The notes under the pieces were generated by a model that saw only the letters and a list, made by a program, of their open reading frames with translations, was not told the DNA's origin and did no database searches. 10,082 nt of DNA from IMG/VR virus record IMGVR_UViG_2778261087_000010. One strand, written 5' to 3'. Made by a program: the position numbers and the translations under genes. This document shows, one piece after another, positions 452-8,247 of the stretch; position 1 is the first letter of the stretch, and the number at the start of each line of letters is the position of its first letter. This stretch comes from a virus (Duplodnaviria > Heunggongvirae > Uroviricota > Caudoviricetes).

Positions 452-766
452 TCACTCTGGGAAAAATGACTGAATGTTCTTTCTTATCTCGCTAGTGCTG
501 TGATTGCTTCCGGTGGCAGGTGCGCTGGCATATTTACTCTGAATATTATTCTTGGCTGGCGCAGCTCCTTCTTCCGGCCATTCGGCCAACCAATAGGCAA
601 ATGCAGGATCGCGTTTTATGAGTGCCAGCCCGGCCAGAAAGGCCGCGCGTTGCGCGCGGCTGCGTTCAGAGGCTGGCAGGCTGTCGAGGTAATTACACGC
701 CTCCCGTTCACTATTGACGGCGACTGGCTTCAGATAGAAACTTATCCGTCTGGTTGGTGTCGTCAT
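452..766 (-). CDS. parR: ParR/StbB-like ribbon-helix-helix centromere-binding protein (104 aa)
   Basis: Internal ATG at 764-766 preceded by AGGAG; the parM stop TAA (771-773) lies inside this RBS. Translation (RRISFYLKP...EREACNYLDSLPASERSRAQRAAFLAGLALIKRDP) matches, from memory, plasmid R1 ParR (RTIAFKLNP...LDSIPQGERSRLNRAALTAGLALYRQDP). The 149-aa ORF in the track (452-901) would overlap parM by 130 nt and is rejected. Confidence 0.75.
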   Translation of the reverse strand: MTTPTRRISFYLKPVAVNSEREACNYLDSLPASERSRAQRAAFLAGLALIKRDPAFAYWLAEWPEEGAAPAKNNIQSKYASAPATGSNHSTSEIRKNIQSFFPE

Positions 767-770
767 TGGT

Positions 771-1730
771 TTACTCCTTGTCCATTGCGTACAGCCCATT
801 AACCAGAGCAAACTGTGGCACCCCGTCCGCGATGAAAGTCGCATTAACTCCGCAGGCTTCGCGGATAGCGGGTGCCACAATCTCCGCCCCACCACCGACA
901 ACCATCACCCGCCCGTAACCCGAAAAACCCGCCAGCGCGCGGATCACGCGTTGTTTCAGTGTTTCTTCCTTTTCACGAATAACCGCCATCAGGCTGGCGT
1001 AATGCGCGTCATTGTGGATGTGCTGGCGCAGCCAGGCTTCATCATGGCGATGTTCGATAATGGTATTGGCGATGTGGTGACTGGTGCGCATACCGTTAGT
1101 GGCCATCACCGACAGTACGGCATCGGCCATCAGAGAAACGCCTACGTGTGGATCGCAAAACACCTGGCTGATACCTGCCAGTTGCCCCTGAACCTTTGCC
1201 ACATCCAGCGTGGTTCCGCCCAAATCCACAATCAGCAGGGATTCAAACGGACTCATGTCAGCCAGTGCCTTAAAGCCAGCCGGAATGGATTCAGGCATAA
1301 CCCGTACGTTACGGATAGTGAATGCTTCGCCGTTCTGGTACTCCACCGGGCGCATAACGTTCGCTTTTTTGCGGTTGATGTTGGTCATGTCCGGCTGTGC
1401 GTTTGTGTCGAAATACTCGCTCAGTGGCAGGGTGACAACCACATCCACCTCCTGTGGCGTGATGCCTGATTTGACCAGCGCGTGATGAATGGCAATGACA
1501 TTCACATCGCTGTACTGGTATTGCGTGTCGGTCGTCTGGACAAAGCGATCGCTGACCGGATCAAAACCATAGCGCACGCCATCAAGCATGTAGTTTGCGG
1601 GCTGCGTGCCACCGAACGGCGCAGACCATTCCGACTTGAAGCTGTTCGGGCTGATGGCGTTGCGGCGTTCGCCGTTCTCAGTCCATGCCAGCTTGATGTT
1701 GGTGGAGCCGTCATCGATACAAATTTTCAT
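771..1730 (-). CDS. parM: ParM/StbA actin-like plasmid segregation ATPase (319 aa)
   Basis: N-terminus MKICIDDGSTNIKLAW plus blocks ISPNSFK, QYSDVNV.AIHHAL, RPVEYQNGEAFTIRNVRVMPESIPAG, LLIVDLGGTTLD and MVVGGGAE align by eye with R1 ParM. RBS AAGGAAAAG upstream of the ATG at 1728-1730. Confidence 0.9.
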   Translation of the reverse strand: MKICIDDGSTNIKLAWTENGERRNAISPNSFKSEWSAPFGGTQPANYMLDGVRYGFDPVSDRFVQTTDTQYQYSDVNVIAIHHALVKSGITPQEVDVVVTLPLSEYFDTNAQPDMTNINRKKANVMRPVEYQNGEAFTIRNVRVMPESIPAGFKALADMSPFESLLIVDLGGTTLDVAKVQGQLAGISQVFCDPHVGVSLMADAVLSVMATNGMRTSHHIANTIIEHRHDEAWLRQHIHNDAHYASLMAVIREKEETLKQRVIRALAGFSGYGRVMVVGGGAEIVAPAIREACGVNATFIADGVPQFALVNGLYAMDKE

Positions 1731-1759
1731 GTCGCTTTTCCTTATGTTGATTAATTAAT

Positions 1760-1870
1760 CGTTTACGGGATTCTGAAATCCCGTTTTTGCCTGTTTTATG
1801 CGCGCTTCATATATCGCGGCGCGTTTTTTGCTCATTTACGGGATTTGTGAATCCCGTTTCTGTCTGTTTT
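1760..1870. promoter_or_regulatory. Candidate parC-like centromere / parM promoter region with two direct copies of a hairpin repeat
   Basis: ACGGGATT-ctga-AATCCCGT at 1765-1784 and ACGGGATT-tgtg-AATCCCGT at 1838-1857, each in the context TTTACGGGATT...AATCCCGTTT followed by a T-run, 73 bp apart. The first lies between the gpA stop and parM start; the second overlaps the last ~20 codons of gpA. Confidence 0.4.
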
Positions 1871-4647
1871 TTGTTTCCACTGGTCAGGCCACCCCGCAGC
1901 AGGTCTGCTTTGCGGCGGGCGCGTTCAGTGGTTTCACTGATTCTCTGTGCGTGCTCTGCGTCGCGGATGGCGCGCAGCATGTCAGAAAGCACGGTAACGG
2001 GTGTTTTCATGGTGTTCTGGTCCTGCTGAAGTGTGGATGCCAGGCGTGCGGCGGCTTCGGGGTCTGATGCCCCCAGCTGTTCCAGATAGCTGGCGACCGG
2101 GTTATGGCGGATCTCCGTGCTGCTTACGCCGTGGTTACGGCTCAGGCGCTGCCAGAGCTGCGTGATCCGGCTGTCCGGGCGGGTATCCGGTTTGCGTACA
2201 ATTTCAAATCCCTGCGGTGCAATGATGCTGCCGTCAACGTACAGACTGCCGCCCCGTAACAGGTGCTGCATCTGCTGTTCACCAATATGCAGGCCGAGAG
2301 ATTCAGCAGACTCCCGCCATTCTTTAGCGAGTAATTCGTGGTTATCAGGCAAAGGCCGCTGCTGTTTGCGGCTCTGTGTCCAGCTCTGCATTTCATCACT
2401 GCTGTTTTTTGCCTGTTTGTCACGAAGCGAACGCATCAGCGCCCGGCGTTCGTGCCGTTTCAGTGAGCGCATCCATTCGTTCACTTCAACGCCGTCAGGG
2501 AGCTGCGGCCACGGTGCTGGCCGTTCTTCCGGCTGTTCTGTCCCGTTGTTGTCCGTTTCCTGTACACGGGGACAGTTATTGCCACGAGTCCAAGGGGCGG
2601 CAGGGCCGCCCTGAAGGTCAAAACCATTTTCGTGGGCGCTGCCTTCCTGTTCCGGTTTACGTCTTACCAGCTTCCAGTTATCCGGGTGCGTGCACACACG
2701 GGAGGATTCCCCGATGAGTGGTGACCAGATCCCGTAAATCTGTACACTCTGTTCGCCGTAATCGTTCAGCTCATCGGCGAGGTCGTAGGCGGTGCGAATC
2801 AGGTAGTCTTTGCGTGGAACAAGTACGCCGCCCTGTTTCTCTATGTAGGTGGCAAAACATCCGGCATCAGCGGCAGCGAGTACCGCATCCATTGCGTCAT
2901 CCTTCAGCCGTTGCGGGCCTTCCGGGTTGCGTGCCATCTGGCTGGCAAGGCGGCGGAGTTCACGCCACACCTGACGGGAGGGGATGCCAAAGAACTGGAA
3001 CTGGCGGACCCGGTGAAGGCGTGCCCAACCGATGGCGCGCTCCACGCTCTCGGCCATTGATTTTCCGGTTTCGTGGTCAACGCGTGGTTTGCCCGTTTTC
3101 GGGTCGATGCCATCCACGGCGCGGCTGTCCAGGTTTTTCCCGATGTAGGTCGCGATATAGCTGGTTGGTGTGCCTTTTGAGCCGTCGACATACTCCACTT
3201 TAAAGCGCGGAGTAATATCATTGCCCAGCTCGTGGCGGTCTTCCTGAATGGCAATATCGCGGGTGATGGCCACGATGCTGTCGATTTCTTCCGGATGAGC
3301 AAAGACCATCATATGCCAGTGCACGGTGCCGTCATGGTGAGGCTCCACCGTGCGGATGCCATACCAGCGCAGGCCGTCGCGGTTCAGTTTTTTGCGGACC
3401 GCCGCAAAAAACGTGTTAACCAGGTAATCGCTGGAGTCGCGCATGGTGGCCCCGTTCCATTTGGGGTTCGGATGACCGTTCTCCGTTGTTGCGTGGTATT
3501 TTGACGGGCAGGTGACAGTCAGAAACACCGCTCTGTCGCCACGGGCTTCGGCCAGAAGTTCCAGTCCCTTCATGGTGGCCATCATTTCTGCCTTACGGTG
3601 AACCGGGTTACTTACTCCCGCGTAATACACTGTCTCGAGATCAATCGTGAACCCGTCTTCGTTTTCCAGCATGAAACTTTTCAGGAAATCGCGTGTTTTC
3701 TCGCGCTGTGCGCGAAACTCGCTTAACGCGTCCTGGCTCAGATAGGGCGATGTTTTTCTGGAAACCAGACAGGCGGCGCGGAGTTGTTCTTCTCTCCACT
3801 CGCAACGTAACAGCCACAGTTTGCGTTTCCACCATTCCGCACAGGTCAGGCGAAGGATTGCGCCCGGCAGCAGCTCCGTGTCCGGTTCGTTCCTCCGGTC
3901 TTTATCTGTTGTCAGTGCGTCATAATGTGGAGGCATGATGTGCAGGTGTAACGCCATGCGGGCCAGCATCTGATACGCCTTCAGCGTTACATCCATGGTC
4001 AGTTCGCCATCGGTCGCGCCAAAGCCATCGCAGAGTTTTTCGAAGGTGCTGCTGAACATCGCCGCCGTCATGGTGGCCAGCGTCTGTATCTGGTGTTTGT
4101 TGAGCTGCGGCAGGTAAAGCAAATCGTCCAGGCGTTCGCGTCCGGCAAGGGAGCGATAACCCGGTGTCAGCCAGCGTCCGTCAGTGCGATCCAGACGTTC
4201 GAATATTTTGCGCAGGGTTCCGCGTGCATAGCGTTCCGCCTGCCAGCTCTTTTTGCCTTTCCGGCGATCAGCTTCCTGTTTTTTGCGCAGGAAGGAGAGG
4301 TGGCGACTCAGAGGTTCTCGCAGATAAACGGGAAGCGCCTTCAGTGTGGCAAAGGCACGGGCTACCGGGTCTTGTTCTGTTGCCCGGCGCTTACTGATGA
4401 TGCTCTGTGCCAGCTTTTCACGCTGTCCGGCTTCCTCAAGGGATGCCATGAGTTTTTTACCCATGGCGGATTGTGCGAAAAAGGCTTCTTCCTTCGCTTC
4501 CTGTTCTTCCTGTGCCCTTTTGTCCGCCTCAAGGTAGTAACGGATGGCGCGTTGCAGGTCGGTTTCAGTTTCCTGCCTGCGCTCCGTAAATCTGGCCGGA
4601 TCAATAGCTGGTCGTGGTTCATTCCAGCTCCATGCAAACGCACTCAT
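1807..4647 (-). CDS. Rolling-circle replication initiator, phage P2 gene A (GpA) family HUH endonuclease (946 aa)
   Basis: HUH motif in GTVHWHMMVFAHPE and paired catalytic tyrosines in TPTSYIATYIGKN (Y-x3-Y), the arrangement of the P2 A / phiX174 gpA family. Start taken as ATG 4645-4647, which overlaps the upstream ORF stop as ATGA; the GTG at 4672-4674 used by the track has no SD. Confidence 0.88.
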   Translation of the reverse strand: MSAFAWSWNEPRPAIDPARFTERRQETETDLQRAIRYYLEADKRAQEEQEAKEEAFFAQSAMGKKLMASLEEAGQREKLAQSIISKRRATEQDPVARAFATLKALPVYLREPLSRHLSFLRKKQEADRRKGKKSWQAERYARGTLRKIFERLDRTDGRWLTPGYRSLAGRERLDDLLYLPQLNKHQIQTLATMTAAMFSSTFEKLCDGFGATDGELTMDVTLKAYQMLARMALHLHIMPPHYDALTTDKDRRNEPDTELLPGAILRLTCAEWWKRKLWLLRCEWREEQLRAACLVSRKTSPYLSQDALSEFRAQREKTRDFLKSFMLENEDGFTIDLETVYYAGVSNPVHRKAEMMATMKGLELLAEARGDRAVFLTVTCPSKYHATTENGHPNPKWNGATMRDSSDYLVNTFFAAVRKKLNRDGLRWYGIRTVEPHHDGTVHWHMMVFAHPEEIDSIVAITRDIAIQEDRHELGNDITPRFKVEYVDGSKGTPTSYIATYIGKNLDSRAVDGIDPKTGKPRVDHETGKSMAESVERAIGWARLHRVRQFQFFGIPSRQVWRELRRLASQMARNPEGPQRLKDDAMDAVLAAADAGCFATYIEKQGGVLVPRKDYLIRTAYDLADELNDYGEQSVQIYGIWSPLIGESSRVCTHPDNWKLVRRKPEQEGSAHENGFDLQGGPAAPWTRGNNCPRVQETDNNGTEQPEERPAPWPQLPDGVEVNEWMRSLKRHERRALMRSLRDKQAKNSSDEMQSWTQSRKQQRPLPDNHELLAKEWRESAESLGLHIGEQQMQHLLRGGSLYVDGSIIAPQGFEIVRKPDTRPDSRITQLWQRLSRNHGVSSTEIRHNPVASYLEQLGASDPEAAARLASTLQQDQNTMKTPVTVLSDMLRAIRDAEHAQRISETTERARRKADLLRGGLTSGNKKQTETGFTNPVNEQKTRRDI

Positions 4648-7968: not shown

Positions 7969-8247
7969 TTATTTTGTCATCTGCACGTATTTTTCTGCGC
8001 TCCTGATTGTTTTCAGGAAAAGAGCGAAGAGATTTACTGTGCGTCTTGAGTTCTTTTCATCCTGGTTGATGGGAATTGAACCTCTGTCAGCCTGTCTTTT
8101 CACTGTGTTAACAGCTTGGTTGGTACGTTTTGCGTAATCTTTCAGGCTTTCTTCAAGTACTGGTAACCCATGCTCATCGCGGTAGGGATAGAACGCTGCT
8201 AACCGCTCAAAGTCTGCCTGTTCGTGTGTGTTCAGGACTTTTGCCAT
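7969..8247 (-). CDS. Cox/Apl/excisionase-like small DNA-binding protein (92 aa), first gene of the leftward early operon
   Basis: Divergent from the repressor-like gene across the operator region, as cox/apl are in P2/186. Segment YAKRTNQAVNTVKRQADRGSIPI...RRTVNLFA resembles Xis/AlpA-type winged helices. Called on position and motif only. Confidence 0.5.
   Translation of the reverse strand: MAKVLNTHEQADFERLAAFYPYRDEHGLPVLEESLKDYAKRTNQAVNTVKRQADRGSIPINQDEKNSRRTVNLFALFLKTIRSAEKYVQMTK

Follow-up and report, generated by a model that had tools for sequence, protein, structure and literature searches.

Two copies of a 20-bp dyad lie at the junction of the replication gene gpA and the partition gene pair parM-parR of a P88-like prophage and, together with their A-rich flanks (approximately positions 1759-1875), they probably form the split centromere (parC) of a type II ParMRC cassette, to be bound by ParR. 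The window, that is the whole stretch of 10,082 nucleotides that was analysed, is part of a P88-like (Xuanwuvirus, P2-type) prophage of Escherichia coli in which the order gpA-parM-parR is found on the minus strand. The early genes all lie on this strand and comprise a cox-like gene with small ORFs, gpA, parM, parR and accessory ORFs. The three genes around the site are as follows:

parR, 452-766, minus strand: ribbon-helix-helix (RHH) centromere-binding adaptor of 104 aa (PF10784, Plasmid_stab_B, E=9e-25)
parM, 771-1730, minus strand: actin-like segregation ATPase (full-length Pfam StbA_N and ParM_N matches)
gpA, 1807-4647, minus strand: P2-type rolling-circle replication endonuclease (PF05840, Phage_GPA, E=4e-131; RefSeq annotation)

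The parMR pair sits after gene A, where P2 has orf91, tin and old. ParM matched R1 ParM (1MWK) with E=9e-93 and the ParR profile matched pB171 ParR/StbB (2JD3) over its full length (E=3.7e-16); judged by such profile matches, both are clear members of the R1/pB171 ParMR family. parM is under purifying selection, its variable sites showing a strong third-position bias (7/5/50 at the first, second and third codon positions, with 100 sites per position). Among E. coli prophages ParM is at least 98% identical and ParR 50-98% identical, with nearly all of the change in ParR falling in a hypervariable central linker (residues ~66-95). The conserved parts of ParR are the RHH N-terminus, with its RRISFYLKP strand, and a C-terminal KNIxxFFPE peptide.

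Searches with the 801 bases around the repeats matched 14 phage records at 97-99% identity, including Escherichia phage P88, Xuanwuvirus and Citrobacter phage phiSM, all of which are P2-like Peduoviridae. The same 801 bases were matched in 1,372 of 5,426 complete E. coli genomes, the best match being a prophage adjoining btuC in strain OkiPb01675, and 1,532 of the 1,534 places were chromosomal. The need for a centromere is not obvious, because nearly all copies of the phage are chromosomally integrated. One contig labelled as Vagococcus sp., a Firmicute (L084, NZ_JBQPOM010000071.1), also carries an E. coli-type prophage region with a ParM that is 98% identical, for which assembly contamination or mislabelling is the likely cause.

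The elements of the site are listed here:

palindrome, 1749-1760, no strand assigned: perfect 12-bp palindrome GATTAATTAATC, after dyad B and ahead of the ribosome-binding site of parM (ATTAAT core conserved across lineages)
candidate split centromere (parC) as a whole, 1759-1875, minus strand: three A-rich 17-mers, both dyads and a central palindrome (repeat families, AA/TT phasing, edge of homology in the mosaic relative L045)
dyad B, 1765-1784, no strand assigned: ACGGGATT-N4-AATCCCGT, intergenic; proposed ParR site, possibly an operator too (repeat statistics and conservation)
dyad A, 1838-1857, no strand assigned: ACGGGATT-N4-AATCCCGT with core CGGG-N10-CCCG, in the last gpA codons; proposed ParR site (repeat statistics and conservation)

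The pattern ACGGGATTNNNNAATCCCGT has exactly two matches in the window against an expected count of 0.01, and two matches were seen in none of 200 dinucleotide-preserving shuffles. The earlier note, which described this repeat as occurring twice, 73 bp apart, with conserved flanks and T-runs, was therefore correct on the point. Both copies fall within direct repeat units of 42 nt (1759-1800 and 1832-1873) that share 81% identity and start 73 bp apart. An A-rich 17-mer (sense strand approximately AAAACAGNCAAAAACG) is found three times (1782-1798, 1822-1838 and 1855-1871), preceding each dyad and also the GC-rich palindrome between them (about 1800-1823), which holds the gpA stop codon. Over positions 1740-1880 the AA/TT dinucleotides recur every 10.4 bp (p=0.006), and nowhere else in the 10-kb window is such phasing as strong. 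Next in strength at a 10-11-bp period comes the stretch at ~7981-8161, which lies upstream of the integrase gene at the map position of the P88 repressor/cox switch; this may be bent DNA to which Cox, IHF or Int binds.

The gap between the gpA stop (1807) and the parM ATG (1730) is 76 bp. On the sense strand the GGG of dyad B starts 52 nt upstream of the parM ATG and the dyad ends 35 nt upstream of it; the GGG of dyad A lies at 125 nt. The site thus immediately precedes parM in an intact parM-parR pair from the R1/pB171 family, and type II centromeres occupy the same position (review PMC5016525). A tandem array of 10-11-bp iterons was not found at the site, which holds just the two 20-bp dyads and the three A-rich 17-mers. 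This counts against parC, since there are only two strong sites (four half-sites) versus 4-10 tandem iterons in classical type II centromeres. In favour of parC, RHH proteins bind direct and inverted repeats equivalently (PMC5016525), and srpC, the type II centromere of SXT/R391, consists of direct and inverted 13-bp repeats that are bound in pairs (PMC4489591).

The distribution of the repeat was followed with a 44-nt query covering dyad B. Matches were found in 1,301 of the 5,426 complete E. coli genomes, at a median of 2 and a maximum of 6 places per genome, corresponding to two per prophage copy and none elsewhere; the remaining 4,125 genomes contained no match. In outline, short palindromes with conserved flanks recall REP elements, so that the repeats might be a dispersed host repeat (REP/BIME-like) or the neutral leftover of a duplication. 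Their restriction to prophage carriers, at two per prophage, and the conservation of dyad core and spacing across genera make this extremely unlikely, and a REP/BIME-like element was rejected in E. coli. The earlier note had named a genome-wide repetitive element as the outcome that would overturn its reading, and the repeat is not one. Amongst 67 P88-like haplotypes the GGG and CCC cores are invariant or nearly so and the dyad centres are polymorphic. Against parC, 23 of 84 P88-like loci have fewer than two strict GGG-N10-CCC matches, many copies having mismatches in one arm.

A protein search with ParM recovered relatives that are 54-63% identical, in Hafnia (L093), Plesiomonas (L095), Serratia (L096) and a locus whose ParM cluster is named from Enterobacter (L097). 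A contig scan with a single ParM sequence returned only relatives of at least 98% identity, and scans of viral contigs gave one extra locus with the Hafnia ParM and none with that of Plesiomonas. Every relative with a readable context (L093, L095, L096 and L097, plus the viral contig L099) lies downstream of gpA in a P2-like prophage, and the same parM-parR arrangement is kept in the Hafnia, Plesiomonas, Serratia and Enterobacter prophages. The association of gpA with parMR is therefore old and not the product of a recent insertion.

The ParM proteins of Hafnia and Plesiomonas are 62-63% identical to that of the window, and here GGG-N10-CCC again occurs twice, 73 and 72 bp apart respectively. 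The near sites are 55 nt (Hafnia) and 59 nt (Plesiomonas) from the parM ATG and the far sites 128-131 nt. Such a pair arose in none of 20,000 shuffles of the upstream region for either genus, and the remainder of the parM-upstream region can hardly be aligned with that of E. coli. Neither the 8-bp hairpin nor the T-runs survive in these two genera, and the 10 central bases are not self-complementary. It follows that what is conserved is a pair of inverted half-sites in duplex DNA, and not a hairpin; from the alignment of these sites, the conserved feature would be a double-stranded protein-binding dyad, neither a terminator nor an RNA hairpin. The AA/TT helical phasing was not significant in the Hafnia and Plesiomonas regions. 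The earlier note had placed the repeats where a parC would be expected and, as far as comparison of sequences can tell, they do behave as a cis site of parMR, lying upstream of parM with core and spacing kept at ~62% ParM identity.

The N-terminal strand of ParR, RR(I/V)SFYL(K/N)P, is common to the window, Hafnia and Plesiomonas lineages. In L096, L097 and L099 the strand reads RKISFYLKP and the site is rearranged, with A-tract-flanked half-sites CGGGAAC and GTTCCC placed ~60 bp apart inside a larger inverted repeat. Within Escherichia a search for co-variation between ParR and the site gave no signal, ParR being 50-98% identical but varying only in the linker; no such signal was possible, because the DNA-reading N-terminus of ParR is invariant.

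The shape of an intrinsic terminator, which the earlier note saw on the plus strand antisense to every gene, is real in the window. Each hairpin is worth approximately -10 to -11 kcal/mol on either strand, a T-rich run follows each copy on the plus strand, and both copies were flagged as terminator-like by the scan. Terminators here would stop antisense or late transcription into gpA. On the plus strand a T-run follows the stem in each copy, and also follows a third, GC stem located between the two; the plus-strand hairpins reach -10.2 to -10.4 kcal/mol (z about -3). However, such a role is very improbable. Both perfect 8-bp stems are kept in just 24 of the 84 P88-like loci, with neither kept in 26, and the sites of Hafnia and Plesiomonas lack the T-run, form weak hairpins (z -0.1 to -2.1) and give no terminator-like hit on either strand. 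No promoter-like site was found on the plus strand in 1400-2300, and the plus-strand terminase-portal operon is closed by a strong terminator of its own, followed ~1 kb further on by a bidirectional one. Moreover, the T-runs are the complement of the phased A-tracts and are already explained if the site is a centromere. A Rho-independent terminator would be expected downstream of a transcription unit and to be kept in relatives; here the shape is not conserved in the relatives, and no plus-strand transcript appears to reach it.

The hairpins could instead act in the sense-strand early mRNA, in its processing or stability or in the regulation of parM translation, an option that we regard as improbable. 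The sense-strand hairpins have energies of -10.7 and -11.0 kcal/mol (z -4.3 and -5.4), and the common variants of dyad B (A1 to G and C18 to T) would keep G-U pairs in the sense RNA. Dyad A variants (T7 to C, T8 to C, G19 to A and T20 to C), however, mostly break sense pairing, and the arm variants overall show no consistent strand-specific compensation. The stems of Hafnia and Plesiomonas are reduced to 3-4 bp with a 10-nt loop, and the region has no match in Rfam. The analysis of wobble and compensation in the arm variants was contradictory between the two copies and was dropped for either RNA model.

A parM promoter had also been expected at this place, and one of consensus type is not supported. 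A scan for the sigma-70 consensus found no promoter in or beside the site, and the best score of an approximate position weight matrix at the site (4.1) was below the shuffle mean (6.0). A conserved ATTAAT is found 17-19 nt downstream of the centre of dyad B, at the distance of a -10 element, and the corresponding place in Hafnia holds a modest candidate, TTCATT-18-TATATT. The 12-bp palindrome that contains this motif may serve as a weak -10 element or as a site for some other protein. Since no consensus promoter was found, the R1 layout with an autoregulated promoter in the middle is not established here, and transcription of parMR may simply come by read-through from the early operon.

With one repeat copy inside gpA, a role in replication was also considered, with the repeats belonging either to the gpA origin or to an accessory locus bound by gpA. 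The origin of P2 is likewise inside gene A, with the gpA nick at 29892 in the P2 record, and a second, distal binding locus is used by some rolling-circle initiators (PMC1851628). A homologue of the P2 nick region was found elsewhere in the window:

nick region, 2572-2609, minus strand: homologue of the P2 origin nick region, inside gpA and not part of the repeat (29 of 38 nt common with P2)

The two nick regions, GCGGCCCTGCCGCCCCTTGGACTCGTGGCAATAACTGT in the window and GCGGCATCGCCGCGCCTCGGAGTCCTGTCAATAACTGT in P2, share the letters GCGGC..GCCGC.CCT.GGA.TC.TG.CAATAACTGT. The homologue is ~730 bp upstream of dyad A, and the two gpA proteins are just 30% identical (over residues 98-806). The nick itself is predicted near 2591/2592, and the homologue is annotated in none of the records examined. 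A P2-type origin at the repeats was ruled out, the homologue of the nick site being at 2572-2609 and not at the repeats. In addition, the repeats adjoin parM, not gpA, when genes intervene, as they do in L045 and Hafnia L093 (one ORF each) and in L097 (two ORFs, ~1 kb), and P2, which lacks par genes, has nothing comparable after gene A. A place for the repeats in the replication apparatus is accordingly quite improbable.

Dyad A lies within the gpA ORF (4647 to 1807), where it encodes TETGFTNPVNEQKTRRDI followed by the stop, and the earlier note was right that the second copy encodes the last residues of the replicase. The end of the protein is as follows:

gpA C-terminal tail, 1807-1875, minus strand: KKQTETGFTNPVNEQKTRRDI followed by the stop, apparently translated from parC DNA (same tail on a different ORF in L045)

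Within the tail (1810-1875) the variable sites are spread over the codon positions as 10/6/10, with 22 sites per position; in the preceding 255 nt (1876-2130) the figures are 34/36/57, with 85 sites per position. In the mosaic relative L045, gpA is 80% identical up to residue ~858 and then ends after 22 unrelated residues. A separate ORF of 155 aa after gpA ends there in EKQTKTGFTNPVNEQKTRSDI and the stop, the same 20-residue tail as that of the window gpA, and the A-rich flank of dyad A is the exact point at which nucleotide homology to the window starts again. Because the tail has no codon-position bias and is also carried by the L045 ORF, it amounts to DNA of the par module that is translated incidentally. 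The gpA of Plesiomonas likewise extends into the upstream site of that lineage (ending in AGQQKPEIA), and in Hafnia a 167-aa ORF passes through the first site and stops inside the second. The L045 ORF (3457-3924) contains CxxC...CxxC motifs and is zinc-ribbon-like; it is unrelated to the Hafnia ORF in the same position, and a comparison of these extra ORFs between gpA and parM in L045 and Hafnia gave no sign of an ancestral 'orfX'.

The P2-homologous part of gpA ends ~140 codons before the stop and the origin homologue is intact; gpA therefore appears to read through into the candidate parC and not to be truncated by it. This bears on the proposal of the earlier note that the cassette, with its centromere, was inserted into the replicase 3′ end and created a new C-terminus. 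A new C-terminus is what has in effect resulted, the tail being par-module DNA. An insertion into the replicase, on the other hand, is not supported, given the position of the homology edge, the intact origin, and a linkage that is old and found in several genera. The ~85-residue C-terminal extension of gpA (residues ~860-925; 1876-2130, minus strand), which follows the part held in common with L045 and P2, has a weak third-position bias and differs between P88-like phages. Overall the gpA C-terminus appears from these comparisons to be mosaic and weakly constrained. In the phage collection, gpA homologues sharing the C-terminal 249 aa were found in P88-like phages only, all with parM, so that no example of the tail without a par cassette, the other outcome that would have told against the earlier reading, came from that collection.

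The site was compared with plasmid loci whose ParM proteins are 46-52% identical. In the R1-type locus 11-bp iterons form two clusters that flank TTGACA, and the IncL/M locus has 10-bp iterons, with 73 bp from the last iteron of the first cluster to the start of the second. AA/TT phasing of 10.4-10.5 bp is found in both plasmid parC regions, as it is at the phage site, and by this comparison the split two-block layout is common to the site and to the R1-type and IncL/M loci. The likeness to R1/NR1 (stbA-stbB) extends to the protein families, a site just upstream of parM, two blocks with a core of ~50 bp, and phased A-tracts; in our own reading, the R1 iteron core AAACCC also resembles the phage half-site AATCCC. 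However, R1 has 2 x 5 tandem 11-bp direct iterons and a clear core promoter, whereas the phage has two 20-bp dyads and no consensus promoter. The upstream block of the phage also overlaps a coding region, and its host is an integrating rolling-circle phage as opposed to a theta-replicating plasmid. Centromeres of pB171 are arrays of short direct repeats. The pB171 ParR (StbB, 2JD3) shares with the phage protein an N-terminal RHH, a linker and a C-terminal ParM-binding tail, but the phage ParR is shorter (104 aa) and its linker is hypervariable.

The closest functional parallels on integrating elements, as far as analogy goes, are srpMRC and AlpAC/alpS. The srpMRC system of SXT/R391 (PMC4489591) is a type II locus on an integrating element that undergoes rolling-circle replication when excised, and its centromere, upstream of the parM-like gene, consists of few direct and inverted repeats that are bound only as pairs. 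It differs in that SrpR is unrelated in sequence to ParR and the repeats are of 13 bp, and in that binding and plasmid stabilisation were demonstrated experimentally. In AlpAC/alpS of the Corynebacterium prophage CGP3 (PMC5539076), a prophage-encoded actin-like filament and a site-specific DNA adaptor serve viral DNA transport and replication; the relationship of its actin-like protein and adaptor is distant or absent, and it comes from a different host and type of phage. Pfeifer et al. 2021 noted that P88 has partition genes although it integrates, and that dual states are possible (PMC7969092). The par genes of P88 are thus already annotated; in the literature searched they were noted there but not studied, and no description of a P88 centromere was found.

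How the proposed parC would work can be sketched from what is described for R1, pB171, pSK41 and SXT (PMC5016525, PMC4489591). ParR dimers, or dimers of dimers, would bind the half-sites CGGGA and TCCCG of each dyad. The spacing of 73 bp is equivalent to ~7 helical turns, which would put both dyads on the same face of bent, A-tract-phased DNA, and they could cooperate, by pairing or by looping the 50-bp core, in a single ParR-parC complex that would cap ParM filaments, on the model of the split parC of plasmid R1. ParR would then capture the filament ends through its conserved C-terminal peptide, and any autoregulation of parMR by ParR would likewise be a prediction from these systems.

P2 replication yields monomeric circles. 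In the phage, ParM filaments would push apart the circular genomes, excised or not yet integrated, that are made by gpA rolling-circle replication, and so would segregate circles before integration, after excision or in lytic growth. The position of the upstream dyad before the first in-frame stop would mean that gpA, or another upstream ORF, is translated through it, giving an unconstrained tail of ~20 residues.

A wider and more tentative proposal is that P88-like P2-type phages, present in about one quarter of finished E. coli genomes, are facultative phage-plasmids in which ParMRC partitions the monomeric circles made by gpA via a two-dyad centromere. We consider this possible but doubtful. 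If true, it would imply episomal persistence (before integration, after excision or in a carrier state) or the positioning of genomes in lytic growth. In one finished E. coli assembly a complete P88-like genome of 34,461 bp is listed as a circular 'plasmid' of strain Z1323PEC0009 (L103, NZ_CP148288.1, 1-34461), with int, C, cox, gpA, parM, parR and the full set of structural genes; this may be either an episomal prophage or a captured replicative form.

For a partition specialist the presence of the site is unsurprising: a cis element was to be expected there, and what is unusual is its architecture and its overlap with the replicase ORF. Were the dyads only an operator, or functionless, the result would be routine. 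If ParR does bind them, a ParR of the R1/pB171 family can use a minimal centromere of two dyads without an iteron array, and the annotated replicase 'C-terminus' would be regulatory DNA translated incidentally, a point of consequence for annotation and for comparisons of gpA. It would also mean that P2-type integrating phages, like the SXT/R391 ICEs, invest in the segregation of their circular form, and the line between prophage and plasmid would be blurred further. The site offers a testable centromere for the partition system of one of the commonest E. coli prophage families, and with it the part played by ParMRC in an integrating prophage that is very common can be tested directly.
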